Shown here piece after piece: positions 6,364-43,285 of a stretch of DNA of 64,000 nt. The DNA comes from Raillietiella orientalis (lineage: Eukaryota). The notes under the pieces were generated by a model. The model ran no database searches. It saw nothing but the letters and a program-made list of their open reading frames with translations, and was not told the DNA's origin. The stretch spans positions 62,001 to 126,000 of the forward strand of contig JAYWIR010000103.1 in assembly GCA_036172245.1 (NCBI GenBank). The letters are read 5' to 3'. The first letter of the stretch is position 1; each line of letters opens with the position of its first letter. Both the position numbers and the translations under genes were made by a program.

Positions 6364-6383
6364 GGAGCACGCAAGGCTCTCGA

Positions 6384-17960: not shown

Positions 17961-18169
17961 ATCCGATGCACCGGGTTGGGATTCTTGTCAGAAGTTAGAT
18001 GGCGAAAACGGTACGCAGCTTTCGCTACGACTTTGTCACCCAATCATGCCAAGTCGTTTATTATCAACATTCGACAATTGCTGTGAGACTCCCTGCAGCG
18101 GAAAATACAACGAGTGACCTTTCGGTTCGTCGGTTCGCCAAACGACCTGACTTTCCATATAAGCCGAGG

Positions 18170-18625
18170 GGAATAAGGGAAAAACACAAAAGAAAGAATA
18201 GTTTTTTGGAGGATCGAGAAGGGGTAACTGCCCGCTACATATAACGTTCAGCCTTTGCTGGATGTCAACGCGATCCTTCTGCCTAATTTGCAGGTGGAAC
18301 CATCGGATTCCAGTTTGCTGGAAGCGAGCTACTCACTCCACGACACACCTGTCGTTTGAATTTCGTATTCCGTTGTATCCACTCCAGAACGCCAGACTAC
18401 TGCACCTGCAGATAAGAGATTATAGGACAGTGGCAGGATGCAGGGAGTTGCGCGAAAAGACGAGCAAGAAAATGTCTGTGGGAGGACTCACCACCGCAAT
18501 CCCGAGGATCGTCTGAAAATGTTCCCAAAGGGGGCGAAGGGCAACACAGTCTACCATCAGGTGCGGCATGGATTCCCGTCCCCGCACCTCACGCACTTTG
18601 TACACACTCTTTCAGGCGTTCTCGT
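18170..18625 (-). pseudogene. Old ORF2 C-terminal remnant with T-rich 3' UTR
   Basis: GRESMPHLMVDCVALRPLWEHF. Confidence 0.75.
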
Positions 18626-20580: not shown

Positions 20581-23360
20581 CTAACACCCGGGTACGCCCG
20601 GCGCATTTATTTAAAAACTCTACATAAGTAGTACGAGGCCCCACCATGGCCGTAAACACAGGACCTGTCGGAACACCAGGACGCAGCCAGGCGTGGCACT
20701 CTGCGGCAACGATAGGGGATGAGGGAAAAAACAAAAATAAAAATAAAAAAAAAAACAAACAAATAGAGTTTGGAGGGAAGGGTAGAAATCACTGGACGCT
20801 GTGAGGAGGGCCCATCTTCCGAAGGAAGCCCTCGAGGTGTCCGCATATTTCCCAGATGGGGCCATCGAGCAGCTATCCGCAAGAAGCGTACTGCATACTG
20901 GATGACGTTCTCTCGTTTTCGTCCACATCTCCGTTACTGGCGTCGCTCCATGCCGCCACGATGCCTCGGACGCAGCACAGGGCTGCGGGGGCTACGGCTG
21001 GCTGCAGAGCGTCCCGCAGGAAGAGGAGCCGGAGAACGTCTCTAGGTGCACTACCCGAAGGGAGCAGGAGGGTCGCCCCGGACCGTTCGCAAAGGAGTCG
21101 GAGGGCAACACAATCTACAATAAGGTGATGGAGCGACTCCCGCTCCCCGCACCTGGCACGCAAAAAATCCACAGTTTCCCTCGTCCAGTGGAAGCGGCGC
21201 GCGTTACAGGGAAGACCCCAGTGCAACAAAAGCAACGCAGACTCTTGCCACCTGAGAGGCAGGATCCTGGATTCATTCATCACCGGTGACCACTTCAGCT
21301 CATGCCTGGGGATGGCGATCAGCTCGCCCCATCTTGCTAATCCTCGCGGCTGGACGCTCGGGGTCGCGGCGTCAGACAGTTCTCCTGTTGTCCAGCCGCT
21401 TATCAACTTCTCCCGTCCCTCGATGCAGCAGGAGACCTGCCACCTTGGTGTCCGGCTGCTGTGAAGAGCCCTCCTTAGGAAGGGCAGCGCCGTAGCTAGG
21501 CAAGTCGCCTCTGCCCACGTGCTTCTTGCTGGACTCTCCAGGAGCTTCCGCAGCGTGCAGCGGGCTTGGGAGCTGCATCGGAGACGATTCCACGTCTCGT
21601 GGTTTCTCTGATTAACCACTGCTTACGTTCCAATATTCTCCTCCAGCCAGGCGACAAAGTTGGCGGGGCAGCAAACCATCCAGCTCTTCTCCTTGGACAA
21701 TGTTGCCATGCGCCCGAGCAGCAGACCGCATCTTCGCATCTTAGGGCCTGGGCACCGAAAAAAAGACGCGTCGCACAAGGACACACGGCTGGCCAGGAGG
21801 CGGGCCGGAATGAACCAAGAGGTTCTCAACATCTTCGCTGCAAAGGCGAGGGTTCGACATCGCAGCTGCTTCTTCACACGCTTTAGCGTCAGAAGGCTAT
21901 GACAACCGTCCCGACGCGGAGCGCATAAGTCCTTCAAAGGGAGTCTGGGCCTCGTTCTGCCCCAAAGGGCGATGCGGAGGATGTCGTTTGTCTTCTTCCT
22001 GGATTCCACAGTGGGGGGGCAAACAAAATGTAAGGGGAAAAGGATGGCGGCCGCGAGTACGTTCTAAACCGAAGCCCGCTCCGGCAAGTGAAACTTGCTT
22101 ACGAGGAACGGGCCGATCGCCGTCTCGACATTTTAGAAGCAGCTCGACCGCGTTTCCGCCTGGGAGTAGTCCTCCAACCGCACATCAAGGTACTTGAAGC
22201 ACTTCGCCGTGAAGATCCCCAGACGTACCCAGTCCTGCTGCCCTGCCCACGCCGCACCTACTGGCACCACCGACGACTTCGCCCTGTTAACCTGCAGTCC
22301 GGTCCCGCGGCTGAGCAGATCGAAGAAGTCTCCGACCGCCTTTGCCGGGGTAGACATTGGCAACAAGCGCAGATTATCGTCGGCATAGGCTGATACGGCG
22401 GCCGTGCCGGGACACGAACTCGGCAAGGGGGCCAAAGTCACCCTGTACGCTCTCAGCACCAACTCAAAGTAGGTACTAAAGAGCAGGGGGCTGAGGCTAT
22501 CTCCCTGACTTATGCCCCACCGCACCGGCACGCCATACACCTTCTAACTGCTGAAAGAGACGGTAATCATCGCGTTCCGCCAGCAAGAGCGCAGGTAGGA
22601 AATCAGGGAGGGTGGGAAGCCTATGCGAACCAGGAGCTCAAAGAGGAGTTCCTGGTCTACACAGTCAAACGCTTTATGGAGATCGACTGCGAGCGCTGAG
22701 GCCCCCTTCCCCGCCCAAGGGTCCCTTCCCAGCCCGGCTGGCGGCCACAATGTGGGGTTGCCGACTTTCCCTATCCCTTTCTTTTCTCTTTTCTGGAGGT
22801 GCACCCATGTGCTTGCGAAGAAGAGGTTGGCATCCATACTTCGCCCGGGAACAGCATAAGTCTGCTCCGGGCTAATTACGGATTCTGCCACCTGCCCCAG
22901 ACGCGAAGCCCATAGCCCTGCTATCAACTTAGCGTCCGTATTCACGATCGTGATCGGACGCCAGTTCTTTAAATTCCTGAGGTCTCCTCCTTTCGGAAGG
23001 AGCCTCACTCTGGCTGACCGAAACGAGGCGGGTACATCGCCTCCATCTCGGATCAGCCTTGTCAACTCAAGCACCAGAGGTGCCAACTCTGCCGCGAAGC
23101 ATTGAACAAACTCCTCAGGCAGGCCGTCCTCCCCTGGTGCTTTCCGCCTCTGGAGCCTTTTGATACCGGCGAGAATTCCGCCGGTGGTAAAAGGCTCGTC
23201 GAGGCTTTCCTTCTCCTCCTCCCCTATTGCCGGGGCACCGTTCGGAAGCAAGCGCCGGGAGGCATCTTGGTCCGGGGGCGCCCTGGCGTAAAGGTAGGAA
23301 CAAAAACGCCTCAAGAGGTGCCGTATTCTAGCCGGAGCCGAGTGCTCCCGGCCTTGGTCG
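20581..23360 (-). mobile_element. A-type element (A5), 3' part: ORF2 pseudogene + 3' UTR
   Basis: RT motifs at 22133-23340; ORF2 stop at about 20789; terminal hairpin at 20581-20612. Confidence 0.9.
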
Positions 23361-23364
23361 GTTT

Positions 23365-23540
23365 TTCCTTGTGCTGTTTTTGGTGTGGAACATCGTTGGT
23401 GTCCGATGGTAGCGATGCCTGAGGACACCACGATGGAGGTAGGAGTAAGGGAAGTTTGCCCACCCCCACAGCCTACAGAATCAGGGGCGTCCGCCCCGGA
23501 ATCGCCCTCGCCGCTCGAAGCGAGGAGCTGGCGCGCCACT
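23365..23540 (+). other. Short fragment of A 5' UTR / ORF1 start
   Basis: Near identical to about 41500-41660 (ggtgtggaacatcgttggtgtccgatgg...MPEDTTMEVG). Confidence 0.85.
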
Positions 23541-25908
23541 CCTCAGATGGCACTGCCCCTCGATTTCCCACACGCAACACAGGTGGTTGTCGAGGAACAT
23601 GTGGTCGATCCTCGTCTCCGTCTTGGCGTCGCCGGCCAACAAGTTGCGCGCGTGCATGGCAGCGCACATCTTGTTGACCAGCTGTGCGCGAATGTCGGGC
23701 GCACCTGCCAGCAGGCGGACGTTAAAGTCCCCGGCAATGAGGTGCGCCTTTCGCATGTCTGCTTCGGCCAGCCAATCTCGCCGCAGGCCTTCGAAGAACG
23801 CACTGCGTTCCCCGCGCCTGTGGCTCGTTCCGGGCGCGTACACGTTGGTCACGACGAGGTCGATCGCGTCGGACCACTTGGCAACAAGCTGCCCGATTTG
23901 ACCTTCCCCGTCGAAGTGCACGTCGCGCAGCGCATTCACGACGGCTGGCTTCAGCATGAAAGCCACACCGCGAGTGCGGTCTTTCTTGTTTTGGTATATG
24001 AGCCGCCCGCCTGCGATCCGTTCGCTTTCCAGGGCCTCCTCTGCGTGGAGCACTTGCGTCTCCTGCAGAAGCGCCAGGTCGAAGTCCCGCAGGCTGGCGG
24101 CCACTTCTCTCCTCTTGCCGTCGTAGCGAACCCGTTGACGTTCCAACAGATTATGCGCAGTCGCCGGCAGGAGGAGAGTCCACGCGTTGGTGTGTGTATG
24201 GTGTTTGCTTACCGTCCTTCGCCTGCTGTTCAGCAGGCGGGACTTCTGTGTCCATTGCGACGGGCTGTTCCTCGCAAGTAGGCGGTTCGTCGGTGGTTGT
24301 GGTGATGGTTGGAGGATCCTGCTTGGCCAGGGCCGCCTCCGACGAGGAGTCGCGAGACCTCGCCGACATCGCCTCCCCGTCGTCGTGGTCCGACCGCATT
24401 TCCTCCTCTGTAGGTGGAGGTGCGGAACGCCGCGGGTTGCCTACCTTGCGGCCCGCTTTGCGCTTCGGGAGAGCGACAGCCGGAGAGTTGCCGGCTTCGG
24501 CTTCGGACTCGGAAGTCTCCGGTCCTTTCGCCTCAGCCGGACGCCTCAAGGCCTTCTTCTCGGCCTTGGGAGGTTGCTGGAGCATGGCTGCCAACTCTTC
24601 CGCCGCCTTATTGAAGTCCCGGTCGTCGCTGCTCACGCTGGGCTCGCGACTTTGTCGCGGCGTCGGCGTTCGCGCGGCGGCGGGTTGAACAGATGGCGTG
24701 ACGTCACATCGCATCAATCCGTCAGCGGAGCGAGTATCGATCGCCGGCACGCGTTTGATGGCCACGCTGGACGCTTTGATTGTTGGGAGTGGCGCGACCT
24801 TCACCTTGCCCTTCACCACTTTCGCCGGTGCGGGCGCGGTTTTTTGGACGATTTTTATTTTACGGGTGACCAGCTGCCAGCCTTCCTCTTCGGCAGTCTT
24901 TTCCGGGAGCTCCTGTACCGAGTCCCTTTCCTGCTGCGCGACTTTTGTCGGAGCCGACGGCTGATCCCCTTTTGTGGGGTTTATCACTATTTTTGCCTTC
25001 CCTTCCTTCTTTTGCGGAAGTTCCGGCGTTGCAGCGACGTTCATCGGGCACACCACTTTGGTGTGGCTTCTCAGGCCGCACGTTGGGCAAACTGCGTCCG
25101 GACACTGCTTTTTCAAATGCCCGAACGACTTACAATTGCCACAAAATTTAGGTTTCCCCACAAACCAAATGTCGGCGAACTCGTCGTTAATTTGGAGCTT
25201 GTGGGGAAGCTGTACGCTTTCTCGAAGCGTCACGCGTGCGCCTACTCGCCCACTAAATGCACCGTTCACTCCGAAGGTGTTGGGCTTTCTTCACATCGCG
25301 AGAACGCTTGCGAATTTTTCCAGTTCAGCGCGGATGGCGTTCTCATCCATCCGCACTGTTGTCCCTGTTAAGTGGACCACAATGGAGTAGTCCACCGTGT
25401 GTGGGAGTAAATTCCTGCCCTCAAATTGTACGGGCGTGCAGAGCATCTTGTGGGTAAGAGCTGCATCCTTGCAGATGAGCTCCGCCAAATGCCCTCCGCT
25501 CCGTAGTGATAGGCAAAGGATTTCATGGTCGGCAATGCCCATCTTTTTGATGGTATTGCCGAACTTTTGCGCCCTTAACGGGGAATATAAATTTCCTATC
25601 TGGTACAAGAGGGCCGGATTGTAGCCCTCCTAGATGTAGGATTGAATTTCGGCGGCGACATCGGGCGTTTCCGCCGCTGGCACCGCGCTCCAGGCTTTCG
25701 CCGTAGTGGCGGGTTCAGAAGTAGTGGTGGGGCGTGATCCCACCTCCTTTGGCTTGGGAGACGCGATCTTCCCGCCTTCCTCACCTGAAACTTCGGCGTT
25801 TACAAACATTTCTGTCTGTCAACATCCGCCAAACACACACGAAACACCAAACAAAAAAACTCCCTATCCACGGACCGCTCGGGCGCGGCCGAAGTTCCCC
25901 GCCTCCTA
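23541..25908 (-). mobile_element. Divergent subfamily G: ORF1 (frameshifted, about 25810-24151) + APE domain
   Basis: CGNCKSFGHLKKQC, CPTCGLRSHTKVVC; LLQETQV, NVYAP, IAGDFN, RIDH. Confidence 0.88.
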
Positions 25909-25909
25909 A

Positions 25910-26490
25910 AGAGCTACTACTCCTCCTTGTATGCTAGGGAAACGACGGAAAGCAGTCTCTCGGAGCTGCTTCTGCCGGCGGATTCCCCGTCGGTCGCCGA
26001 GGAGGAACGCGCCACTCTTGAATTGCCTTTCACGGCGGAAGAAGTGTCTTCCACCATATCGGGCCTCAAGAAGCGCAAGTCACTAGATGAGGATGGTCTG
26101 CCTGCGGAGTTCTTCCAGTACTTCGCGGCGGAACTCATCCCTTTGGTGCTGAGGCTTTCTGCGCTGATGCGAGAGACGGGCAATGTACCGGCCTCGTTTC
26201 GCTCATGAAGGGTGTGTCTGGAGAGGAAAGGCGGAGACATGCGCCTTTTAAGCAACTGGCGTCTCATTAACTTGGTGAATGCGGACGTCAAGTTGTTCTC
26301 CTGGCTCTGGGTCGCGCGCCTAGGCAAGATCGCTGAATCCGTGGTAATTCCGAAGCAGTCTTACGCTGTTCCCGGACGGTCCATGGAGGCGTAACTGTTC
26401 TTCGCGCGCACGTGGATCAAGCTGCAACGTCGCGTGGAGCACGAAAGCCAGAAAACCGCATCTGCGGCTAACAGGGCTAGGCGTCGCAGC
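25910..26490 (+). pseudogene. D-related ORF2 fragment (RT N-terminus)
   Basis: YYSSLYARE, DEDGLPAEFF, NWRLINLVNADVKLFS. Confidence 0.85.
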
Positions 26491-26492
26491 AT

Positions 26493-29400
26493 TTGGGGAG
26501 GGTTGCGTCGACGTTGTCGGACCATTCCCGGTTAATTTTCGAGATACGGCCTCGTGACAAGGGACCGCCATCCAGGGATTGGCGTCTGCCGGGGGACTGG
26601 ACGCGACTCTCAGGTGCGAAGGAACACCTTCGCGAATTCCTGAGAGGCGTCACCCTCCGCAGTCTCAAAGATTGGGACCTCTTCAAGGCGTCGGTCCGCG
26701 AGTTCTGTGAGCAGTTCCCCCTGCACCGCCTGCCCCCCGGATTTTGGGAGGGGGCTCGGAACCATAGGGCCTATTTGCAGGCCCGCCGGTACGAGAGGAC
26801 CCCCAATGTCCGTCGCCTGGCCGAATATCGAGCCGGGGCCGAGCGCCAAGCCTGGCAATCCGGGTCGGCCAGCTTGCTGGACGACCAGGGCCGGGAGCGA
26901 TCAACCCCACCCGCGATCAGGCACCTCGTGCGGCAGTATTATTCCTCCCTCTACGCTAGGGCACCCCCAGAGCATGACGCCTCGCGACTCCTGCTTCCGG
27001 ACGGAGGCCAGGCAATAGGGGAGGAGGAGAGGATCAGCCTCGACGAGATTTTATCTACCGGTGAAATTCTCGCCGGTATTAAAAGGCTTAAGAGGCGTAA
27101 GGCGCCAGGGGAGGACGGCCTGCCTGCGGAATATTTTCAATGCTTCGCGAAAGAGCTGGCCCCCCTGGTGCTCCAGTGGACCGGGCTGATCCGAAACGAA
27201 GGCGACGTTCCCGCCTCGTTTCGGTCATCCCGTGTGAGGCTCCTCCCTAAGGGAGGAGACCTGAGATCCCTAGGCAACTGGCGTCCGATCACAATTGTGA
27301 ATACGGACGCCAAGCTGGTCGTTGGACTGTGAGCTTCGCGTCTAGGACAGGTGGCAGACTCTATAATTAGCCCGGAGCAGACATACGCTGTTCCCAAGCG
27401 AAGTATGGATGTCAACCTGTTTTTCGCGAATACATGGTTCCATGTGCAGCGCTGCCTAAATGAAACTGGCGGAAAGGTTGACAACCCCACTTTGGGGCCG
27501 GCAGCTGGGCTGGGAATGGACACCCGGGCTGGGAAGGGGGCCCTAGCGATCGCGGTCGATCTCCATAAGGCGTTCGACTGCGTTGACCAGGAGCTACTGT
27601 TGGAGCTCCTAAGTCGCATGGGCTTCCCACCCTCCCTTCTCTCCTTCATGCGCTCCTAATGGCGCAACGCCATCCTTAACATCTGCTTTTCTAGACAACA
27701 GGTGTACGGCGTGCCGGTGCAGCGGGGCATACGGCAGGGCGATGGCCTCAGTCCCCTGCTCTTTAGCACCTACTTTGAGTTGGTGCTGAGAGCGTACAGG
27801 GTGACTTTGGTCGCCCTGCCCAGCTCGTGCCCCGGCACGCCCGCCGTAGCAGCATACGCCGACGACCTTCTGCTCATGTTGCCCATGTCCGCCCCGGCAG
27901 CCGCAGTCGAGGATTTCTTCGACCTGCTAAGTCGTGGGACTGGACTCCGGGTAAACAAGGCGAAGTCGTCGGTCGTACCGCTGGGTGCGACGTGGGTCGG
28001 ACGGCCTGACTGGATTCGCTTGGGGATCCCTGCGGCCAGGTACCTGAAGTACCTGGGTGTCCCGTTGGGGGATTTCTGCCTCGCAGAAGCGTGGTCAGGT
28101 CGTCTCCAAAAGGTAGAGTTGGCAATCGGCCCGTTCCTGGAAGGCAAGTTTCACTTGCCGGAACGGGCCGCGGTGTGGAACGCGTTCGCGGCTCCCATCC
28201 TCCGCACCCTGCTTTTTGTTTGCTCCGTCCCCCGTGACATTAAAAAGAGGACCAAGGACCTATTCCGCATCGCCCTCTGGGGCAGCGGGAGGCCACGTGT
28301 GCCTCTAGATGACTTATGCGCTCCTCGTCGGGACGGCAATCTCGGCCTCCTGACGCTGGAGCGCCTGGACATACAGCTGCGATGGCGCACCCTGGCCATC
28401 GTAGCAAAGTCATGGAGCACCCCTTGGTGCGTTCCGGCTTGACTCCTCGCCAGCCGTGTGTCCAGGACGCAAGGACTCGCGTCGTACCTTCTGTGCTCTG
28501 GCAGGAAGGTCAGAAGATGCGGCCTTCTCCTTGGGCGCATGGAAGCCCTGGTCAGAGACAACGGCTGGACGGTATGCAGCCCCGCCAACTCCTCCGCCTG
28601 GCTGGAGGAATCCGTTGCGACGTAAGCCAAGCTGAACCTCCAGACTTCCCCGGACTGGAACCGCCGGCGATTCGGCCCCAACGCCTGCTGCACACTGCGG
28701 ACTACTCTGGAGTGTCCCGCCAAAAGCACGTGGGCGGAGAGTACCCCTCTAGCTTCGACCCTGCCTTTCCTACGAAGGGCTTTAACCAGCGGCCGCAAGC
28801 CAAAGTGGCAAGTCTCCTGCCGAATCGCAGGCAAGGAAAAAAAGATCAACGGTTGGACCATGGGAGAACTGGCGGATGCCACGACCCCGAGTGCTCTCCC
28901 TCGTGGACTTCGTCGATGGGGCGAGCTGCTCGGCATCCCGACGGATGACCTGAAGTGGCCCCCAATACTGATAGGATCCAGGCTTCTCCCCCTGAAGTGG
29001 CAAGAGTCGGCGCTGCTGCTGTTGCACTGGGGTCTACCCTGCAACACGCGCCGCTTCCACTGGACGCGGGGGAGTGTAACGCCTGAGTGTGAAAGGTGTG
29101 GGAAGCGGGAATCGCTCCCCCACCTACTAGTTGACTGTGCTGCCCTCCGACCCCTGTGGGAACGGTTCGGGACGACCTTCGGGCTCCCAATGGGCACCAC
29201 GCCCAGAGACGTTCTTCCGCCCCTCTGCGTGCGGGACGCCCTGCAGCCCGCCGCAGCCCTCGCAGCTTTCTGCTGCATCCGGGGCATCGTGGCGGCATGA
29301 AGCGACATTCGCGACGAAGGAGTGGATGCCAACGTGAGGGATGTCATCCCGTATGCGGTCTGCTTCATGCAGAGAGCAGCGAGATGGCCCCATCTGGGAA

Positions 29401-29678
29401 ACATGAAGATGGAACTAGAGGGCATCCTGCGAAGGATGGACCCTCCTCTAAGTGGAACGTGATCCCTTCTCCTCCCTCCAAACTCTTTTTGTTTTCCTTT
29501 ATATTTATTTTTAATTTTGTTTTGATCCCTATCCCCCTCCACAGCCGAGGAGCGTCACGCTGGGCTGCGTCCCGGCGTCCCGGCAGGTCCGGTGTTGTGT
29601 GGCCGTTAGTGGGGCCTTGTACTACGTTTTCTTGTAGAGCTTTATACAATAAACGCCCCGGGCGTACCCGGGTGGAAA
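26493..29678 (+). mobile_element. 5'-truncated A-related element (subfamily B): ORF2 pseudogene + 3' UTR
   Basis: Runs from RVASTLSDH through YADD and CERCGKRESLPH to the stop at 29460-29462; several nonsense codons; terminal hairpin 29648-29678. Confidence 0.92.
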
Positions 29679-32294
29679 CCCCAAATCCCGCAGGTAAGCG
29701 ATGCAGGGGAAACTGGTCGCAGAACTCCTGGACCGACCGCTTGAAGCGGTCCCAGTCCTGAAGTGTCTGTATCCTGTAGCTACGAATAAACGCGAGGAGG
29801 TCCTCCGCCGCGTCGGGAAACTTCAGCCAGTCCCCTGGCAGACGCCACGCTGACGAGGGGGGCCCTTGTCGCGCGGACGCACTTCGAACATGATCCGACC
29901 ATGGTCCGACAGCTCGAATGGTACCTTGCCGCGCCTGCCCACCCGAGAGCATAGGTGCTGATCAAGGTACACGTGATCGATGCTGCTTTCCATGGCCGTG
30001 TCCCCGGCCAACAAGTTGCGCGTGTTCATTTCTGCGCACAACTCGTTGACGCGGTCGTTCAGTGTATCCGGCGCACCTGAAAGCAGGCGCAGGTTGAAAT
30101 CACCTGAGATCAGGTGCGCTTTAAGAACTCCTGCATCGGTCAGCCAATCGCGTCTCAGGGCAAGGTAGAATTCCCTTCTTGCCTTCGCCCTCAACGCGGC
30201 GTTTCCGCTAGGAGCGTATAGGTTGGTGCCGACCAGGTCGATAGAGTCGGACCAGCTGAGAGTCAGCTGACCGACGTGACCTGCGTCATCGTACCGAACG
30301 TCCTTTATTGCGGTCTCGATGCCTGGGCGAAGCAGGAAGGCGAAACCGCTTGATTTCGCGGTGCCGCAACGCCACAACAGCCGCCCACCCGAGATCCGTT
30401 TGATCTCCCGGGCTTGATCTGCGGAGATCACGTGGATCTCCTGCAGCAGCACTAGGTCGAAGGATGCCAGGGTGGCGGCCACGGCACGCCTCTCGCCGTC
30501 GTCGCTTAGCCCGTTCACGTTCCAACAGGCGATCAGAAGACGACGGCGAGAGGTGATTCCCGGCATTATGGCTGGGAAAGTGGCGTCGCGACACCTGCCG
30601 CGGGGCAGGTGTAGGAAAGGTCCATCGGTACGAGGACGGAGGCCTCTTCAGGCGCCTGGGGTACCTGTTCGGCCTCCATCCTCACCATCCCCTCCGTGTC
30701 CGAGCGTGGAATTCTCTCGGGCGACGGGTCCCGGGAGTTTCCCACGCTCATGGCACCCTCGCTACCGGAAGCCATCTCTTCCCCTTCGTCGGGGGAGACG
30801 ATCTTCCGGGGCATTGTGGACTTTCGTCCTGCCTTTTTGCGGGTTGCCGCGGAGATGGATGCTGTGTTTCTGGCCTTCACCTCGGGCTCGGAAGTGGCCG
30901 ATTCCTGAGGGGAAGCCGGACGCCTGACGGCCTTCTTGTTAGCCTTGGGGGCAACCGGCTGCAGCGAGGTAGCCAGCTCATCCGCGGCGCGCTCGAAGGC
31001 GACGTCATCGAGCGTGGGCTCGATGACGGACGCTGCCGCCTCGCTCCCCTCCTTGTTGACTTTGTCAACGGAGGGTTGAGCAAGGGCAGCAGCGAGATCT
31101 TTAGCGCCGCATCCGTCGATGGCGGGAATCCGCTCGACGACAACGCAGCAGCTTGCTAATTTTTCGCGGCACCAGAGCGGTTTCGCTTCGTTTCGCCACG
31201 TTCCTTTCCCTTCTTATGGGAGTTTTTCTTGGGGTCGACCTTCTGCCACCTGGCTCTTGACCTCGCCCTCGACCTTTTTCGGCGTTTTTCGCCTTGGTCT
31301 CGAGGCTGGCCTTCGCCTTGGAGGCGGAGGTGTCCTCCTTAGCAACCCCGTGGGAGCTGCCAGCTTCTTTCTCTATTTTGCTGCGCGCTTTTTCGCGTTT
31401 TTCGCGGACACGACGCGGACTGTGTTTTAGGGGCACACCAGACGGGTGTGCCCCGCTTGTTTGCATTGCTAGCACTGCACGCTCGGACACCTCATTTTAA
31501 GGTGACCAAACCTGCTGCAGCAGCCGCAAAACTAGGGTTTCCCCACGTACCACACGTCAACGAATTCACCGTTGACGATGAGTTTGTGGGGAACCTCACA
31601 TCCCTCGCGAACCGTCACTCGCGCTGCACCCAGGCCGCCTAGCACCCCGTCGTAATCGACAAAAGGAGTAGGTTTACCCCACAGCGCGTGGACAGTTGCG
31701 AATTTTTCGAATTCGTTCCGGACGGCCTCCTTCGTCATCCGGAACGTGATACCGGTCAGGTGAATGATCACCGACCGGTCTTTAGTAATTGGGAGAAGCC
31801 TCCGGCTGCCCATAATTATGGGGGTTCGCAGAAGTCTCTGCGCAAGAGTTGCCTCCTTGCAGATAACTTTCACAAATTGACCCCCGCTTCTGACGGACAT
31901 AGCCAGAAGCTCCTCTTTCTGTACGCCGAGAACGCGCATCGCCTGTGAGAATGCGCGCGCGTTCTCGGGAGAATATAGACAGCCTACCTTATATAGAAGG
32001 GGTGGGTTATACCCCTCCTCCAGGTAAGCGCGCATTTTCGCCATAGCCGCTGGAGTAGGTGCCGCAGGCACGGCGTTCCAAGCCCTGGGTAGAGACGGGG
32101 CCGCGTCCGTGCTGGCGGGAGCCTCCACTGATTCGGGAGCCCCCACCTCCATCTGCTCCGGGGGCAATGAGGTCATCGCACCCGGATCCTCACCGGTGGT
32201 GATATCAGGCATTTCTGCCTAATCCTCCACCCACACCACGCACAGGCGCCAACGGAAATGGAACTCAGGAGCAACGAAAAGACACGTCCGCTCG
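29679..32294 (-). mobile_element. Subfamily C copy C1, 5' part (ORF1 32212-30566 disrupted; APE 30566-29679), interrupted by B
   Basis: 5' CGAGCGGACGTGT; MPDITTGEDPG; TAATG overlap; MPGITSRRRLLIACWNVNGL. Confidence 0.92.
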
Positions 32295-32524
32295 ACGCTC
32301 CGGAATCTTCATTGAAACCCGGGTGCGCCGGGACGTTTATTCTAACGAATAAACTTATACAATCTGTGACTGGACCAGTAGTCCAGCCACGCCCTGGAAA
32401 GATATAGCCTGCCGGGCTACCGGTGCGCAGACCGGCGCGGTCGACCTCGGCAGCAGAGGGGAGGGGGAACGAAACAAAAAGAAAACAAAAAATAAACAAA
32501 AATCAGGGAGGGAGCGGGAAGGAA

Positions 32525-35500
32525 TCACAGTCTGCTGGGAGGGTCCGTCATCCTCTGGAGGATGCCGGCAAGCTGTTTCTGCGTGTGTGGTTCCAGATGG
32601 GGCCATCGCGTCGCCATCCTGAGGAAACGGGCGGCATACACGTTGGCATCCCTGTCGCTTGACCCTCCCGTCGCTTTGCTCCATGCCACGACGATCCCGC
32701 GTAGGCAGCACAGGGCTGCAAGCGAGGCCGCTGGAGGCAGGGCGTCACGGACGAAGAGGGGGCGCAAAGCGTCTCTAGGGTTGCCTCCGGGGATCCCCAG
32801 GGCTGCGGCAAAGCGTTTCCACAAGGGACGGAGGGCAACACAATCCACTAACAGGTGGGGGAGGTATTCCCTCTCCCCTCACCTGACACAATTAGGGTTG
32901 ACACCCCCCCGCGTCCAGTGGTGTCGGCGGGCGTTGCAAGGAAGCCCCCAATGCAACACCATCAGTGCCGACTGTTGCCACTTCATGGGGAGGGTGCGCG
33001 AGTCCATGAGCACCGGAGGCCACTCGAGATGTTCCTCTGGAACATCCAGTAGCTCTCTTCAGCGCAAAAGTCCATTTGGGGTGGTCCTCGGGGTCGCAGC
33101 GTTGGTGAGCTGACCCGTTCTCCAATCCCCGATCTTCTTTTCCCTGCTGGCGATCTTCACAGTTACCTCCCATTGTGCCGCGACGTCGCTGCCCACATGT
33201 TCCCGTAGGGTAGGCAGTACCGCAGCAAGGGAGGTTCTTTGTGCCCACGCTCTCCTTCGGGGATTCTCGATGATTTCTCGGAGCGTGCGGCGGGCATGCG
33301 GCCCGAACAGAGCTATTCGCTCGTGTTGCGGGCTCTGCTCCTGAATCATCGCCCACGTGCGGACGGTTTCCTGCAACCAGGCAGGACCGTTCGCGGGGCG
33401 TACGAGGATCCGCGCCGAGTTGTTCTTCACGAGCTTGGCCGCCCTCCGAAGTTGAAGTCCGCAGTGGCAGATGGGGCTTCCGAGTGCAAAGTAGGACGAG
33501 AGTCCCGCATTGCCGGTGGCCCGCTCGACGAGGAGACGTGCTGGGAGGCACCAAGGGGTGCACCAATTTCCTGCCATAAAGGCAACAACTCGGAACTGGA
33601 GCTGTAGCTCCAGCCGCTCCAACGTCAGGAGGCCCAGACAACCATCCCGACGAGGAGCGCACACGTCGGAAAGACGGACTCGGGGCCTCCCTCTGCCCCA
33701 AAGGGCGATCCTCAGGAGGTCCTTCGTCCTCTTCTAGTCTCTGTGCTGAAGGGGCAAACAAAAAGCAAGGGGCGAGAAGGGGGGGCCGCAAACGCGTTTC
33801 ACGCCGCGGCCCGTTCTGCAGGTAGAACCTGCCGTCCTGGAACAGACCCGATCGCCGCCTCCTGAGCCTTCTGAAGGCAGCCGGACCACGCTTCCGCAGG
33901 GAAGTAATCCCCCAACGGCACACCAAGGTACATGAAGTACCTCACCGTGGGGATCCACAAACGGACCCAGTCCTACTGCCCTGCCCACGCCGCTTCGACT
34001 GGCATTACGGACGACTTCGCCCTGTTCACCGTCAGTCCTGTTCCACGACTCAGCAGGTCGAAGAAGTCCTCGACCGCCGCAGCCGGGGTGGACATAAGCA
34101 GCAGCAGCAGAAGATCGTCCGCGTACGCCGAAACCGCAGGCGTACCGGGGCAATCGAACGGCAGGTGCGCAAGAGTCTCCCTGTACGCTCTCAGCACCAA
34201 TTCGAAAAAGGCGCTAAAGTGCAGGGGGCTCAGGCTGTCTCCCTGCCGTATGCCGCGTCGCAACGGTACTCCGTGCACGGTTTGCCCGCTGAAAAGAACA
34301 TTAATGAGCGCGTCGCGCCAGCTGGAGCGCAGGTAGGCCAACAAAGAGGCCGGGAAGCCCAAGCGTTCTAGAAGCTCCAGCAGGAGATTCTGGTCGACGC
34401 TGTCGAATGCTTTACGCAAGTCGACAGCGACCGCAAGGGCTCCCTTCCCCACCCGACCGTTCCGTCTCCCGCCAACGGACGCACCGGAATTCCGGCTGCT
34501 CAATAAGCCCCTTCCTTGTTGGAGCTCTAACCATGTGGAAGCGTGGAACAGGTTCGCCTCCATGCTCCGCCCGGGAACAGCATAAGTCTGTTCCGGGCTG
34601 ATGAAGATGTTGGCAACCCGTCCCAGACGCTCTGCCCACATCTTGGCTATCAACTTGGCGTCCGCATTCACTATTGTGATGGGACGCCAGTTGTTCATGC
34701 TCCTTAGGTCTCCTCCCTTCGGGAGGAGCCGCACCTTTGCTGAACGAAACGAGGTGGGAACGTCACCTGTTTCACGGATCAGCAAGGTGAGCTGATGTAC
34801 CAGGGGAGTAAGCTCAGCCGCGAAAGTTTGGTAAAACTCCGCGGGCAGGCCGTCCTCCCCTGGAGCCTTCCGCCTCTTGAGCTTTCCGATGGCCGAGAGG
34901 ATCTCGTCCATCGTGAAAGGCTCGTCGAGGCTTCTTTTCTCCTCCTCCCCGATCGCTGGAGCACCTTCCGGAAGGAGAAGTCGTCAGACGTCTCGCTCCG
35001 GAGGCGCCCTGACGTACAGGGTGGAGTAAAATTTTCTCACTATCCCTCGTTTCTGAGCGGGAACCGAGTGCTCCCTGCCATGGTCTTCCAGCAAGCTGGC
35101 CGTCCCGGATTGCCAGGCTTGCCTCTCGGCTCCCGCTCGATACTCTGCTAACCTGCCCATGTCGGGGGTTCTCGCGTAACATCGGGCCTGAAGATAGTGC
35201 CTTTCGTTACGCGGCCCCTCCCCAAATCCCGCAGGTAGGGGATGCAGGGGGAACTGTTCGCAGAACTCCTGGACCGACCGCTTGAAGCGGTCCCAGTCCT
35301 GAAGTGTCTGCATCCTGAAGCTCCGATTAAACGCGCGGAGGTGCTCCGCCGCGTCGGGAAACTTCAGCCAGTCCCCTGGCAGACGCCACGCTGACGAGGG
35401 GGGGCCCTTGTCGCGCGGACGCACTTCGAACATGATCCGACCATGGTCCGACAGCTCGGATGGTACCTTGCCGCGCCTGCCCTCCCGAGAGCATAGGTGC

Positions 35501-36108
35501 TGATCAAGGTACACGTGATCGATGCTGATTTCCATGGCCGTGTCCCCGGCCAACAAGTTGCGCGTGTTCATTTCTGCGCACAACTCGTTGACGCGGTCGT
35601 TCAGTGTATCCGCCGCACCTGAAAGCAGGCGCAGGTTGAAATCACCTGCGATCAGGTGCGCTTTGCGAACTCCTGCATCGGTCAGCCAATTGCGTCTCAG
35701 GGCAAGGTAGAATTCCCTTCTTGCCTTCGCCCTGAACGCGTTATTTCCGCTAGGAGCGTATAGGTTGGTGACGACCAGGTCGATAGAGTCGGACCAGCTG
35801 AGAGTCAGCTGACCGACGCGACCTGCATCATCGAACCGAACGTCCTTTATTGCGGTCTCGATGGCTGGCCGAAGCAGGAAGGCGACACCGCTTGATTTCG
35901 CGGTGCCGCAACGCCACAACAGCCGCCCACCCGAGATCCGTTCGATCTCCCGGGCTTGATCTGCGGAGATTACGTGGATCTCCTTCAGCATCACCAGGTC
36001 GAAGGATGCCAGGGTGGCGGCCACGTCACGCCTCTTGCCGTCGTCGCTTAGCCCGTTCACGTTCCAACAGGCGATCAGAAGACGACGGCGAGAGGCGATT
36101 CCCGGCAT
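32525..36108 (-). pseudogene. ORF2 (APE-RT-CCHC) of C2, several frameshifts/stops
   Basis: ORF pieces 34984-36108, 33973-34911, 33059-33664 and 32525-32848 are colinear with the open C3 frame. Confidence 0.92.
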
Positions 36109-37766
36109 TATGGCTGGGAAAGTGGCGTTGCGGCACCTGCCGCGGGGCAGGTGTACGAAAGGTCCATCGGTACGAGGACCATCGGAACGAGGACGGAGGC
36201 CTCTTCAGGCGCCTGGGGTACCTGTTCGGCCTACATCCTCACCATCCCCTCCGTGTCCGAGCGTGGAATTCTCTCGGGCGACGGGTCCCGGGAGTTTCCC
36301 ACGCTCATGGCACCCTCGCTACCGGAAGCCATCTCTTCCCCTTCGTCGGGGGAAACGATCTTCCGGGGCATTGTGGACTTTCGTCCTGCCTTTTTGCGGG
36401 GTGCCGCGGAGATGGATGCTGTGTTTCCGGCCTTCACCTCGGGGTCGGAATTGGCCGACTCCTGAGGGGAAGCCGGACGCCTGACGGCCTTCTTGCCAGC
36501 CTTGAGGGCAACCGGCTGCAACGAGGCAGCCAGCTCCTCCGCGGCGCGCTCGAAGGCGACGTCATCGAGCGTGGGCTCGATGACGGACGCCGCCGCCTCG
36601 CTCCCCTCCTTGTTGACTTTGTCAACGGAGGGTTGAGCAGGGGCAGCAGCGAGTTCTTTAGCGCCGCATTCGTCGATGGCGGGAATCCGCTCTACAACGA
36701 CGCAGCAGCTTTTAATTTTATCGCGGCGCAGAGCGGTTTCGCTCCGTTTCGCCACGTTCTTTCCCTTCTTATGGGAGTTTTTCTTGGGGTCGACCTTCTG
36801 CCACCCTGGCTCTTGACCCTCGCCCTCGACCTTTTCGGCGTCTTTCGCCGAAGTCTCGGGGCTGGCCTTCGCCTTGGTGGCGGAGGTGACCTCCTTAGCA
36901 GCAGCACGAGCTGCCAGCTTCTTTCTCTTTTTTGCCGCGCGCTTTCTCGCGTTTTTCGCGGACACGACGCGGACTGTGTTTTGGGGGCACACCAGACGGG
37001 TGTGCCCCGCTTGTTTGCATTGCTGGCACTGCACGCTCGGACACCTCATTTTAAGGTGACCAAAGCTGCTGCAGCAGCCGCAAAACTTGGGTTTCCCCAC
37101 GTACCACACGTCAACGGATTCACCGTTGACGGTGAGTTTGTGGGGAATCTCAGATCCCTCGCGAACCGTCACTCGCGCTGCACCCAGGCCGCCAAGCAAC
37201 CCGTCGTGATCGACAAAAGGAGTAGGCTTGCCCCACAGCGCGTGGAGAGTTGCGAATTTTTCCAATTTGTTCCGGACGGCCTCCTTCGTCATCCGGAACG
37301 TGATACCGGTCAGGTGAATGATCACCGACCGGTCTTCTGTTATTGGGAGAAGCCTCCGGCTGCCCATACTTACGGAGGTTCGCAGAAGTCTCTGCGCAAG
37401 AGTTGCCTCCTTGCAGATAACTTCCACAAATTGACCCCCGCTTCTGACGGACATAGCCAGAAGCTCCTCTTTCTGTACGCCGAGAACGCGCATCGCCTGT
37501 GAGAAGGCGCGCGCGTTCTCGGGAGAATATAGACCGCCTACCTTATATATAAGGGGTGGGTTATACCCCTCCTCCAGGTAAGCGCGCATTTCCGCCATAG
37601 CCGCTGGCGTAGGTGCCGCAGCCACGGCGTTCCAAGCCCTGGGTAGGGCCGGGGGCGCATCCGTGCTGGCGGGAGCCTCCACTGATGCGGGAGCCCCCAC
37701 CTCCATCTGCTCCGGGGGCAATAAGGTCATCGCCCCCGGATCCTCACCGGTGGTGGTATCAGGCAT
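36108..37766 (-). pseudogene. ORF1 of C2, premature stop at 36231 and a short duplication near its 3' end
   Basis: 511 aa open with CGCCSSFGHLKMRC and CQQCKQAGHTRLVC; the homologous stop overlaps the ORF2 ATG (TAATG 36110-36106). Confidence 0.9.
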
Positions 37767-37848
37767 TTCTGCCTAATCCTCCACCCACACCACGCACAAG
37801 CACCAACGGAAATGGAACTCAGCAGCAACGAAATAACACGTCCCCTCG

Positions 37849-38516
37849 ACGCTCCGGAATCTCAGGACTGGGACCTTTTTGAATCGGGGTCCGCGAGTTC
37901 TGGGAGCAGTTCCCCCTGGATCGCTTGCCCCCCGGGTTCGGCGAGGGTGCTCGCAACCATCGGGCCTATTTACAGGCTCGTAGGTACGAGTAAACCCCTA
38001 ATGTTCGTCGCCTGGCCGAGTACCGCGCCGTGGCCGAACGCCAAGCCTGGCAATCCGGGTCGGCCAGCTTGCTGGACGACCAGGGCCGGGAATGTTCGTC
38101 CCCGGCGTCGGTACGGCATCTCGTGCGGAGTTTTTATTCCTCCCTTTACGCCAGGGAGCCCCCGGATCGAAACGCCTTTCGACGCTTGCTTCCGGATGGC
38201 ACCCCGGCAATAGGGGAGGAGGAGATGGAAAGCCTCGACGAGCCTTATAACACCGGCGAAATTCTCTCCGGTAACAAAAGGCTCAAGAGGCGTAAAGCTC
38301 CAGGGGAAGACGGCTTGCCCGCGGAGTTCTTTCAGAGCTTCGCGGAAGAGCTGGCACCCCTGCTGCTTAAGTTGATCTGGCTGATCCGAGACGAAGGCGA
38401 TGTTCCCGCCTCGTTTCGGTCAGCCAGAGTGAGGCTCCTTCCGAAAGGGGGAGACCTCAGGAATTTAAAGAACTGGCGTCCGATCACGATCGTTAATACG
38501 GACGCCAAGTTGATAG
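37849..38516 (+). pseudogene. Internal ORF2 segment of an A-type host (A0) bounded by two insertions
   Basis: From TLRNLQDWD to NTDAKLI; near identical to about 55769-56438. Confidence 0.9.
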
Positions 38517-41440
38517 TTGCCACCCGGTCACGCCGGGGCGTTTATTAAAAATTCTCTTTGATTCGTGGTACGAGGTCCCACTACGGCCAACTCAACTGGA
38601 CCTGCCGGGTCGCCGGTACGTAGACCGGCGCGACTCTCCTCGGTAGCGGAAGGGGGTGGGGGAAAAAACAAAAAGAAAAATAAAACATAAAAACAAAAAG
38701 ATTTGGGAGGGCTGGAGAGGGATCACTGACCACTGGGAGGAGAATCCACCCTTCGCAGGATGCCCTCGAGATCGGTCCGTATAATTCCCAGGTGGGGCCA
38801 TCTGGTCACAATCCGCAGGTAGCGGACTGCAAGTACGACGGCATCCCTGTCGTGGCTCGGTCTTCTGACGTTGCTCCAGCACGTCACAATCCCGCGTACG
38901 CAGCAAAGTGCAGCCAGGGTAGCGGCTGGACGCAGGGCATCATGCACGAACAGAAGCCGAAAAACGTCTCTGGGCTGGCTGCCCTCCTGGATCCGTAGGG
39001 AGGCACGAAGACGTTCCCACAGGGGTCGGAGGGCAGCACAATCAACAAGGAGGTGGGGGAGGGTTTCCCGTTCCCCACACCTGATGCAGGTAGGATCTAC
39101 TCGACCCCTGGTCCAGTGGTGGCGGCGTGCGTTGCAGGGTAGACCCCAATGCAACAACAGAAGCGCCGACTCCTGCCACTTCAGGGGGAGGATCCTAGAA
39201 CCAATTAATACCGGGGGCCACTTCAGGTCATCCGGCTGGATGCCGAGTAGCTCGCCCCATCTCTGAAGTCCTCTCGGCTGGACACTAGGGGTACTGGCGT
39301 CCGCCAGTTCACCCGTGGAACAGCCGCTGATCAACTTCTCCTTGCCTGCGATGCGGCAGGAGACTTGCCACCTAGGCTTGCGGCTGCTGGAGAGCGCCCT
39401 CCTCAGGAAGGGCATCGCAGTAGCTAGGGGGGTTGTCTCTGCCCACGTGCTTCTCGCGGGACACTGGAGTATCTTCCGCAGAGTGCAGCGGGAATAGGCG
39501 CCGCGTCGCAGGCAGTTCCATATTTCTTCATTTTTTTCATTAATCTTCGCCCACGTGCCAGCTGTCTCCTCCAGCCATGCGGAGGAGTTGGCGGGGCTGC
39601 ATACCATCCAGCCGTTTTCCTTCGCCAGAGTTGCCATGCGTCCCAGGAGAAGTCCGCATCTCTTGATATTCTTGCCACGGCAGAGAAGATAGGACGCGAG
39701 ACCCTCCGTCCCGGATACACGGCTGGCAAGGAGTCGGGCCGGAACGCACCAAGGGGTGCTCCATAACTTCGCTGCGATGGCGAGGGTTCGGAAGCGCAGC
39801 TGAATCTTTACTCGCTCCATCGTGAAGAGGCCGAGACCGCCATCCCGACGTGGAGCACACAAGTCCTTCAACGGGACTCGGGGCCTCCCTCTTCCCCAAA
39901 GGGCAATTCTCAGGAGGTCCTTCGTCCGTTTTTTCAACTCTCTGGGGACCGAACAAACAAAAGCTGGGGGCGGAGGATAGAAGCCGCGAACGCGTTCCAT
40001 ACCGCGGCCCGTTCCGGAAGGAGAAACTTGTCTTCCATGAACGGGCCGATCGCCGTTTCCACTTTTTGGAGGCAGCCGGACCACGCTTCCGCAGGGGAGT
40101 AGTCCCCCAACGGCACAGCAAGGTACTTCAAGCACCTCGCCGTGCGGATCCCCAAGCGGACCCAGTCCTGCTGCCCTGTCCACGTCGCTCCAACTGGCAA
40201 CACTGACGACTTCGCCCTGTTAACCTGTAATCCGGCCCCACGGCTAAGCAGGTCGAAGAAATCTCCGACCGCCTTCGCCGGGGTGGACATAGGTAAGAGG
40301 AGCAGAAGATCGTCGGCATACGCCGCTACGGCTGGCGTGCCGGGGCACGAGCTCGGCAAGGGGGCCAAAGTCACCCGGTACGCTCTCAGCACCAACTCAG
40401 CGTAGGTGCTAAAAAGCAGGGGGCTGAGGCTGTCGCCCTGCCTTATGCCCCGCCGCACCGGCACGCCATACACCTTTTGTCCACTGAAAGTAATTGAGAT
40501 TATCGCGTTCCGCCAGCAAGAGCGCAGGTAAGAAATCAAGGAGGGTGGGAAGCCCATGCGACCCAGGAGCTCCAAGAGGAGTTCCTGGTCAACACAGTCG
40601 AATGCCTTATGGAGGTCGACTGCGATCGCTAAGGCCCCCTTTCCCGCATGAGGGTCCCTACCCTGTCCCACTGGCGGCCCCAAAGTAGGGTTACAAATTT
40701 TCCCTTTCCCTTCTTTATTACTCCGCTGCGCGTGCATCCATGTGCTCGCGAAGAAGAGGTTGTCCTCCATACTTCGCCCGGAAACAGCGTATGTCTGCTC
40801 CGGGCTAATTATGGAATTGGACACCTGCCCCAATCGCGACGCCCACATCCCGACAATCAACTTGGCGTCCGTGTTCACAATCGTGATCGGACGCCAGTTG
40901 CAAAGTTTCCTGAGGTCTCCTCCCTTCGGGAGGAGCCTCACCCTGGCTGACCGAAACGAGGCGGGAACATCGCCTTCGTCCCGGATTCGCCTTGTCAACT
41001 CGAGCACCAGGGGGGCCAGCTCTTCCGCGAAACTCTGAAAGAACTCCGCAGGCAAGCCGTCCTCCCCTGGCGCCTTACGCCTCTTCAGCCTTTTGATACC
41101 GGCGAGAATTTCACCGGTCGTGAAAGGCTCGTCGAGGCTTTCTCTCTCCTCCTCCCCTATCGCCACGGAACCACTCATGAGCAATCGCCGCGAGGCGTCT
41201 TGTTCCGGTGGTGTTTTGGCGTAAAGGGAGGAATAAAAACAATGCACGAGATTCCGTACCGCAGACAGGGACGAACGTTCCCGGCCCATGTCATCCAGCA
41301 TGCTGGCTGACCCGGATTGCCAGGCTTGTTGCTCGGCTCCGGCGCGGTATTCGGCCAGGCGACGGACATTGGGGTTCCTCTCGTGACGACGCGCGTGCAA
41401 ATACGCGCGTTCGTTGCGAGCCCTCCGCCGAATCCCTTGG
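38517..41440 (-). mobile_element. A-related subfamily E, 3' part (ORF2 41440-38723, frameshift near 39965) + 3' UTR; interrupted by the A1-A3 array
   Basis: RT motifs including YADD; CIRCGERETLPH; terminal hairpin 38517-38546. Confidence 0.92.
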
Positions 41441-41531
41441 CGAGTGGACGTGTTTTTCCTTCGCTCCCGAGTGAGTCGACAGGAAGCGGTTTTTTCTATT
41501 GTTGTTTGGTGTGGAACATCGTTGGTGTCCG

Positions 41532-43285
41532 ATGGCAGCGATGCCTGAGGACACCACGATGGAGGTAGGTGTGGGGGAGGCTTGCCCACCCCCACAGCCT
41601 ACAGAATCAGGGGCGTCCGCCCCGGAATCGCCCTCGCCGCTCAAGGCGAGGAGCTGGAGCGCCATGGTGGCCGCGCCTAGCGCGGAAACCATGGCCGAGA
41701 TGGCGGCCTACCGGGCAGCTGGGTACAAGCCCAGCTTGGTTTACCAGGTAGGCAATCTCTTTGACGGGCGAACTGCACGCGCTTTTTCGAAAGCGCTGCA
41801 GAACGCCAACGTGTTGGAAAAGGACCTTGACGGTCTATCCGTGCTAAGCGGGGGTCAGCGCGTTGAGGTTGTCTGCAAGGACATCACCTTGGCGCAAAGC
41901 TTGATAACCACCCCGCTGAACGTGGACGGACGCAAGATCCTACCAGTCACGATGGACCGCTCCGTAGTGGTCCATCTGACAGGGATCACCAGCCGCATGA
42001 CGCGGTCTGCGGTTGGTGATCAGTTAAGAAAGTACGGAGATGTTCACGCGCTTTGGCCAAAGGCCACAATCTTCGATGGCTACGATAGCCTTTTCGGAGG
42101 GCAGGCCGCCGCGCGCGTGACGGTGAAAGAGAGTGGGCTTCCCCACAAACTAGAGGTCAATGGCGAAGTCGTAGACCTCTGGTACGTGGGGAAACCCCGC
42201 TTTTGTGGCTACTGCAATGCAGTAGGACACTTGCGCAAGCGGTGCCCGAACATTGTGTGCCACTTATGCGGGGAGAAGGGCCACGTACGCCGCGTATGCC
42301 CTAAACGCCCCACTCCGGTGCCGCCTGCTGCACAAAAAGCACAGGCAAAACGCGGTAAACTGGTCGAAAGACCAAAAAGAGATACTGGCCGGCAGCAGCC
42401 GCTAGCCCCTGTTCCTCCCACACAGGCGTCGGAAGAAAAACCCTCCGAAGACGCGGGAGTCCAAGACGGCTGGCAGCTGGTCCAGGCCAGGAAGGAGAAA
42501 AAGGTGCACCCCGCGGAACCCGCGAAAGCGGTAAAAAAGACAGCCGGCAAGGCGAAAAAACCTGGGCCGCGCTCTAAGACCATGCGGGAATGTACGGTAG
42601 CACTGGAGCGTATAGCCGTTCCCGAGATTGCCACCCGGGGCGACGAGCCTTCCCTCGCCGTTTCCGCCGCGCCTGAGGTTCGCGACGACGAACCCTCTGT
42701 TTACACAGAGGGTGAGCCGCGCGATGCGCCGGTCGACACTGCGGACGCCGCGTTCGCAAAGGCGGCGGAGGAGCTCGCGGCCACGCTGGCGGAGCGTGAG
42801 AACCCCTCACGCAAGGCCGTGCGAAGGCCGGCTCCCGCGAAAAAGGCCCCCACAGGTGAGTCGGACCTGGGGGCCGGAAGTGCATCCTCCTCCTCGGAGG
42901 CACCCCCAGGAAGTCGGGACGCAAGTCCCAGAAACCCAGGAGGCGCCTCCCCTCCACCAGCGAGGAGGAGAAGCAGGAAGGTAGCGGTAGCGTGGGAATC
43001 CCGGAGGGGGAACTCCCACGCTCGGAAGCCGTCGAGCTGGCCACCCCCATGGAGGAGGGTGAGCAGGGGGGCGAAGTCCTCCCTGCAGTCGCCGAGCCTG
43101 AACAGCCCGCCCCCATGGAGGAGGGCCAACAGGTAGGCGCGACCCCACTTAAGGGTGACCCCCTCGACGCGCCGTTACCCATGGAGGAGGGGGACCAGGT
43201 GCACGCAGCGCCTGACCCTCCTCCTCCAGCTAGCGTCCCGCCCCAACAGGTGGCGGACGCCGCATCGCCATCTTCCCAGGAATAA
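41532..43285 (+). pseudogene. ORF1 of A1, one frameshift in a C run near 42905
   Basis: CGYCNAVGHLRKRC, CHLCGEKGHVRRVC; tail continues in ORF 42992-43285; could be a homopolymer sequencing error. Confidence 0.88.

Follow-up and report, generated by a model that had tools for sequence, protein, structure and literature searches.

A 64,000-nt stretch of the Raillietiella orientalis genome (assembly GCA_036172245.1, contig JAYWIR010000103.1, positions 62,001-126,000, forward strand), hereafter the window, is a nest of related long interspersed nuclear elements (LINEs). We analysed the insertion sites of one of its families, the C-type LINE, which lies antisense within the second open reading frame (ORF2) of another, the A-type LINE. 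The element letters A, B and C are those of an earlier reading of the same DNA (the original prediction), which had proposed a fixed C target with a 17-bp duplication and a head-to-tail array of two C copies spaced by one copy of that target. All copy counts and junction tallies below refer to this 64-kb window. It is about 60% G+C, its repeats are 70-97% similar to one another, and self-comparison, blastn and tblastn identify the whole 64 kb as LINE-derived, the low-GC part included. Its open reading frames (ORFs) encode Exo_endo_phos and RVT_1 domains, with zf-CCHC in one ORF1 (Pfam), and the A-, B- and C-type insertions all sit in a LINE ORF2. Copies were compared by blastn, domains were assigned with Pfam, and solved relatives were sought by a PDB search with the A ORF2.

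The C copies, the A copies that flank them and the target copies at their junctions are as follows.

26495-29678, plus strand: A', a 5'-truncated A-like LINE lying antisense in C1 (blastn, junction)
29679-32294, minus strand: C1, a C-type LINE represented by its 5' 2.6 kb (C positions 1-2629), with CGAGCGGACGTGT as its start (blastn, start sequence)
32295-32311, no strand assigned: spacer between C1 and C2, one target copy, ACGCTCCGGAATCTTCA (junction reading)
32312-37848, minus strand: C2, a C-type LINE at its full length of 5537 bp (ORFs, Pfam, ends)
37849-37864, plus strand: target copy where the C2 5' end meets A, lacking one C of the 17-mer; it opens the A right flank (junction reading)
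37849-38515, plus strand: A6, an A-type ORF2 fragment (A positions 2646-3313) that borders the C array on the right (blastn, 94.8% identity with the A reference)
58790-61441, plus strand: A5, an A-type LINE represented by its 5' 2.65 kb, which flanks C3 on the left and ends in the exact 17-mer at 61425-61441 (blastn, junction)
61442-64000, minus strand: C3, a C-type LINE of which the window contains the 3' 2.56 kb, the rest lying beyond its edge (blastn, 97.2% to C2)

In C2, ORF1 is open over 513 amino acids and has two CCHC knuckles recognised by eye; ORF2 carries endonuclease and reverse transcriptase domains (Exo_endo_phos, 2.6e-12; RVT_1, 4.5e-22) but is split over three frames or more. 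The ORF2 of C3 is open over 780 amino acids (RVT_1, 2.2e-23). C2 ends in ...AATAAACGTCCCGGCGCACCCGGGTTTCAA without poly(A), and the C 3' ends at 32312 and 61442 are identical, ...CCCGGGTTTCAA standing directly at the target with no poly(A). Both full C 5' ends begin at the same base, CGAG(C/G)GGACGTGT. The left end of C1 is cut by the 3' end of A', and directly after A' lies the 8-mer CCCCAAAT (29679-29686), which is C1's own version of the target used by A-type elements. The copies also occupy different layers of the nest: C1 and C2 lie in the oldest layer, while C3, with its open ORF2, lies in the youngest (A5 belongs to an array inside A2, itself inside A6), indicating that the C family was active over a long period.

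The proposed 17-bp target of the C elements

The 17-mer ACGCTCCGGAATCTCCA corresponds to the codons T-L-R-N-L-Q of the A-type ORF2, a claim of the original prediction that we could read directly in the translation (...LRGVTLRNLQDWD...). It falls in the linker between the endonuclease and the reverse transcriptase. All C termini in the window adjoin it (4/4), in two separate A copies (A5 and A6) and in the array spacer. At the C3 3' junction (61425-61441), the 17-mer is exact; the A ORF2 continues leftward from it, and to its right comes TTGAAACCCGGG, which is the C 3' end in reverse complement. At 37849-37864, the C2 5' junction, it has lost one C of the CC at positions 15/16 and stands between the C2 5' end (...ACACGTCCCCTCG) and the A right flank (GGACTGGGACC). 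Between C1 and C2 (32295-32311), it stands alone with a single mismatch, C to T at position 15, preceded by the C1 5' end at 32294 (...ACACGTCCGCTCG) and followed by the C2 3' end at 32312 (again TTGAAACCCGGG). The original prediction had placed the 17-mer at these same three junctions, and our reading agrees with it in each case, down to the missing C and the mismatch.

Searching the whole window for the 17-mer with up to 2 mismatches returned 8 matches against 0.02 expected, and none of 100 shuffles reached 8. Three of the matches are unoccupied targets in A copies.

2329-2345, minus strand: unoccupied exact target in an A copy (17-mer search)
44071-44087, plus strand: unoccupied target with one mismatch in the full-length A copy Aref (41434-47081; 17-mer search)
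55769-55785, plus strand: unoccupied exact target in A4 (17-mer search)

Two others carry two mismatches each, one in a diverged A-like copy at 20484 and one in an unrelated place, the A C-terminal region, at 46106. Five A copies have at most one change at the site, and two of these are occupied; two more diverged A copies, with 2 and 4 mismatches at the site, are empty. At the homologous position, C's own ORF2 matches the target at 11 of 18 bases (the 17-mer plus the next base, counted by eye). As it thus differs at 7 of 18 bases, C does not offer its own target.

The 17-mer is present in its entirety both in the A left flank, at C3, and in the A right flank, at C2, and occurs once in intact A copies, a pattern that would result from staggered nicks with a 17-base offset. 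Along the C strand, the order of parts is A right flank, TGGAGATTCCGGAGCGT, C, TGGAGATTCCGGAGCGT and then A left flank. Site specificity and a 17-bp duplication, as proposed in the original prediction, fit every C junction (all four termini), but the duplication is not seen around any one element.

A model for C integration

We propose, with a probability of roughly 0.68, that C is a site-specific LINE that integrates by target-primed reverse transcription through nicks 17 bp apart, that it thereby produces a 17-bp duplication, and that a second insertion into a copy of this duplication gave rise to the C1-C2 array. Under this model, C would be an autonomous LINE of the L1 superfamily, with an ORF1, an apurinic/apyrimidinic endonuclease (APE) and a reverse transcriptase, integrating antisense to A at the T-L-R-N-L-Q codons of the A ORF2. 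The first nick would fall on the A sense strand, ...AATCTCCA^RGACTGG, and the 3' end at this nick would serve as primer for a copy of C RNA begun at the fixed end of that RNA, ...GGGUUUCAA. The other strand would be nicked second, 17 bases off, at ...GGAGCGT^GAC, and fill-in would then leave the 17-mer on both sides of C. This placement of the nicks, which we infer from the junctions, follows the established logic of target-primed reverse transcription.

Once formed, the duplication copy beside the native flank could be cut again, and a second C inserting there would yield C, 17-mer and C head to tail, a double insertion as in R1. The original prediction took the duplication to regenerate a full target. 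One native flank remains, however, beside each outer 17-mer, and R1 takes only the 5' copy for re-insertion, so that the 17-mer alone need not suffice as a target.

Both altered copies of the 17-mer (at 32309 and 37863) are changed at positions 15-16, which lie 2-3 bases from the presumed priming nick. This may be chance or a scar of integration or repair.

Two insertions or one duplicated element

On the C strand, the array begins with A flank, followed by the 17-mer lacking one base, C2, the 17-mer with its mismatch and C1. Its spacer equals the target duplication in length and matches it at 16 of 17 bases. The strongest argument that such an arrangement can arise by repeated insertion comes from the A-type elements. 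All A-type 3' ends (...CCCGGGTG..A(A/G); 4/4) are followed by the 8-mer CNCCRAAT, in three target families as well as in arrays. This 8-mer is the antisense of the G-F-G-E codons of a LINE ORF2; the C site lies about 75 bp upstream of it.

41426-41433: A-type 8-mer site (junction reading)
47082-47089: A-type 8-mer site (junction reading)
58782-58789: A-type 8-mer site (junction reading)
29679-29686: A-type 8-mer site (junction reading)
20573-20580, minus strand: A-type 8-mer site (junction reading)
41434-47081: Aref, first member of the head-to-tail A array
47090-58781: A4, second member of the array
58790-61441: A5, third member of the array

The members of the A array are separated by exactly one 8-mer, CGCCGAAT. 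They are only 57-85% alike over their first ~1.2-1.4 kb and 88-99% alike over the remainder. Since the array contains three different ORF1 modules, its members are independent insertions and not duplicates, and it shows that re-use of a duplicated target builds arrays in this LINE group. We prefer double insertion for the C array mainly because the A array has independent members.

Several observations weigh against our model. The window contains no single C with both flanks (0), the 17-bp duplication being read from the set of junctions, and independent occupations of the C target number only two. Left of A' (26495), the sequence is not C1: the interval 23360-26495, where they were expected, contains neither the 3' part of C1 (2.9 kb) nor the left A flank of the array. 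The identity between C1 and C2 is uniform, at 88-98% per 200 columns, and their differences are spread evenly over the codon positions (29/20/26 in ORF1 and 14/14/12 in the endonuclease part; for C2 against C3, 15/23/24), which indicates neutral decay after insertion. When the C1/C2 differences were polarised with seven outgroup copies, 32 were derived on C1, 26 on C2 and 77 remained unpolarised, so that the two copies look equally old. Nothing marks C1 and C2 as separate events, and unequal exchange between 17-mers gives an identical structure. Growth at the 5' copy, as in R1, would make the upstream member the younger one, and no such age order was detectable in the C array. In the A array, the ORF2 of the upstream Aref is broken and the part of the A4 ORF2 within the window is open, which fits poorly with a younger upstream member.

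The alternative that draws most on these observations is that a single C inserted with a 17-bp duplication and was then doubled by unequal sister-chromatid exchange or replication slippage between the 17-mers. Such an exchange yields exactly 17-mer, C, 17-mer, C, 17-mer; C1 and C2, of one sublineage, are uniformly similar and differ neutrally; and their derived changes, 32 against 26, are what twins of one age should show. Expansion of dimers by unequal exchange is also described in PMC5932611. However, 17 bases are very short for homologous exchange, and duplication cannot produce the three different ORF1 modules of the A array, which has the same architecture. In R1, that architecture is attributed to re-insertion (PMC2718515). 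The original prediction had suggested asking whether array neighbours are closest relatives, and they are not closer: C1 and C2 are 94.5% identical (blastn, 2635 columns), against 97.2% for the non-neighbours C2 and C3, although the two values come from different regions of the element. On balance, we consider duplication of one element unlikely. The interpretation given in the original prediction is partly supported: a spacer of one target copy is the published signature of double insertion (PMC2718515 for R1, PMC5932611 for the P element and R1), but C1 and C2 by themselves are inseparable from the product of an unequal exchange.

It is highly unlikely that C lacks site specificity altogether and that a single insertion into A was followed by the spread of an A+C composite through segmental duplication, gene conversion among the A copies or an A transcript that retrotransposed with C inside it. 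Only two A copies are occupied, as such a history would have it, and the flanks A5 (A positions 1-2662) and A6 (2646-3313) overlap in the 17-mer alone and are thus not comparable. Composite copying would not, however, bring both junction types together on one isolated 17-mer without A flank, as found in the array. Moreover, C3, whose ORF2 is open, lies in the youngest layer and C1/C2 lie in the oldest, and within the same window the A relatives use one site in three different families.

An assembly artefact at the C1-C2 junction is hardly credible even in so dense a nest of 70-97% similar repeats, where none of the run contigs compared bridges 32250-32350, given that C1 and C2 are distinguishable at ~5% of positions, that the spacer carries a private mismatch, and that the architecture recurs at the A-A junctions 47082-47089 and 58782-58789 and, in similar form, between diverged C-like copies near 6366-6382. 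Short assembled contigs from one sequencing run that contains 0.33 of the sequence words of the stretch, and from two further runs of the same sample or study, gave pieces of 200-400 bases from related copies when aligned to 31900-38300; none bridged 32250-32350, so the runs neither confirm nor contradict the junction. No RNA run was listed for the stretch. One of the pieces is an unoccupied A site with the full 17-mer.

The junction near 6366-6382 is an observation of its own. At 6341-6402, diverged C-like copies, 72-77% identical to C, meet head to tail in a second such junction. Between their recognisable ends lie ~17 bases (6366-6382) that occur nowhere else in the window. These bases may belong to the element's 5' end or represent a target copy of a family not seen here, and we do not use them as evidence.

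Sites and ends shared with the other families

The B element provides the only insertion in the window for which a duplication and both flanks are seen directly.

49536-55442, sense: B, which interrupts the catalytic G-D-F-N codons of the A4 endonuclease, with a 9-bp duplication

The 9-bp sequence ATTTCAATC lies on both sides of B (49527-49535 and 55443-55451).

All families share a 5' start motif, GGACGTGTNTTTC, with 6 matches in the window against 0.26 expected. The full 5' start is present in C1, C2, Aref, A4, A5 and B, and truncated copies (A' and 20573-23360) are the minority. The families likewise have a 3' end in common, in which AATAAACG is combined with a CCCGG/CCGGG hairpin and with GT..AA, poly(A) being absent; A and B end in ...GGGTG(G/A)(C/T)AA.

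Shared 5' starts: 4956, 32277, 41446, 47106, 49542, 58802
3' ends: 6383, 10800, ~18033, 20581, 29678, 32312, 38516, 47081, 55442, 58781, 61442

The hairpin is kept in the 11 ends; as these show no compensatory changes and the fold does not always beat shuffled sequences, we make no structural claim for it.

Classification and relatives

With an APE-type endonuclease, a reverse transcriptase and an invariant 3' junction, C is probably a target-specific APE-type non-LTR (long terminal repeat) retrotransposon. The ORF2 domains, a reverse transcriptase nearest to L1 ORF2p and the presence of an ORF1 point to the L1 group for the LINEs of the window. The best solved relative of the A ORF2 in the PDB search is human L1 ORF2p (2e-42), followed outside L1 by a reverse transcriptase-like protein (2.9e-13); the best chain named R2 scores 8.3e-11. 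By Pfam, zf-RVT is weak and under the cut-off (8.3e-4) and zf-CCHC is found in an A ORF1 (6.8e-5), while the atlas neighbours have RVT_1, Exo_endo_phos and zf-RVT. The 3' poly(A) tail that is typical of, though not universal in, L1 elements is absent from the C, A and B ends of the window.

A protein search with the A ORF2 gave 11 matches, the best of them 66% identical and two named with an organism. The C3 protein found no relative in a prokaryote genome collection. Scanning metagenomes with a degenerate 3'-end pattern produced 23 loci, which we judged unrelated; they looked bacterial by eye, from the printed flanks alone.

Comparison with known LINEs

R1 of arthropods, which inserts in 28S ribosomal DNA, is one close parallel. 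As described, it resembles C in its APE endonuclease, its one exact target and its fixed 3' junction, its fixed-length duplication corresponds to the one proposed for C, and it likewise forms head-to-tail arrays with exactly one duplication copy between members. Section 13 of PMC2718515 explains the R1 arrays, spaced by a 14-bp duplication, as insertion into the 5' duplication copy. C differs in that its target is the coding sequence of another LINE, entered antisense, and not an rRNA gene, in the length of its proposed duplication (17 bp against 14), and in a protein nearest to L1 ORF2p by solved-structure search.

A double-insertion model in which the spacer is the duplication is presented for the P element and R1 in PMC5932611 (McGurk and Barbash 2018), and the tandem dimer of C, with its target duplication as spacer, has the form described there. 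The account of McGurk and Barbash draws on population data and, for jockey, on different 5' truncations, whereas the case for C rests on one pair with no independent marker.

The clustering of LINEs within their own kind also has precedents. Section 6 of PMC3446292 and section 10 of PMC8226300 describe Zepp and ZeppL of green algae as L1-type LINEs of ~61% G+C that enter copies of their own kind and form nested, LINE-only clusters in tandem arrangement. The window shares with these descriptions the L1-type elements of similar G+C content, the nested insertion into their own kind, the tandem arrangement and the LINE-only clusters. Zepp arrays, however, are said in PMC8226300 to consist mostly of 3' ends owing to frequent 5' truncation, whereas the C 5' ends are full in 2/2 cases and three members of the A array are full at the 5' end. 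Compared with Zepp by description only, the window further differs in that its several families have exact sites and duplication lengths of their own and lack poly(A).

Examples of the Tx1 clade include Tx1L, found in the Tx1D DNA transposon, as well as Keno, Mutsu and Dewa. Like C, Tx1-clade LINEs are L1-group, APE-type and sequence-specific elements, and the introduction of PMC4640811 lists transposons among the targets of the APE-type LINEs of the Tx1 and R1 clades. The difference, again judged by description, is that C targets the ORF2 of a LINE of the same superfamily and that the families of the window appear to target one another. We found no published description of site specificity for the ORF2 of another LINE in open-access text, outside which Repbase reports lie. 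The mechanism itself is known; what is new here is that a codon block in the ORF2 of a sister LINE is hit antisense, with a 17-bp duplication and no poly(A), and that several families have their own sites.

A possible guild of LINEs

These sites may be parts of one pattern. It seems to us about an even bet that the window holds a guild of L1-type LINE families that land in each other's ORF2, each endonuclease recognising a different conserved codon block: T-L-R-N-L-Q antisense with 17 bp for C, G-F-G-E antisense with 8 bp for A, and G-D-F-N sense with 9 bp for B. Further families would have further sites, and C would spare its own version of its site. If so, cross-targeting together with the re-use of duplicated targets would itself build and enlarge LINE-only islands such as those that serve as centromeres in some green algae, and would supply a sequence-level mechanism for "insertion into existing copies". 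It would thereby provide a testable mechanism for the nucleation and growth of Zepp-like clusters, although the array as such is an ordinary consequence of a duplicated target, already described for R1.

Site-specific LINEs serve as models for how such elements find safe places, and tools for programmable insertion can start from them. In this window, a related LINE would be the safe place, with sister families at distinct exact sites within ~400 bp of the same coding region, which would form a natural series for studying how an APE-type endonuclease changes its specificity.

Further features of the window

At 38515/38516, A6 is cut by the 3' end of a minus-strand A-like LINE (38516-41425) that lies antisense at A position 3313. 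This insertion site differs from those of A, B and C and occurs once.

The interval 11500-18600 has 41-48% G+C within the 60% G+C nest and contains decayed pieces of LINE ORF2 and ORF1 (tblastn). Judging from its composition and these remnants, it looks like older, AT-shifted LINE copies and not host genes.

The interval 23360-26495, to the left of A', is occupied by a minus-strand LINE with an ORF1 at 25788-24337 and an endonuclease at 24122-23577. It also includes a plus-strand reverse transcriptase piece at 25879-26451 and, at its left edge, a short plus-strand A 5' piece (23359-23538).

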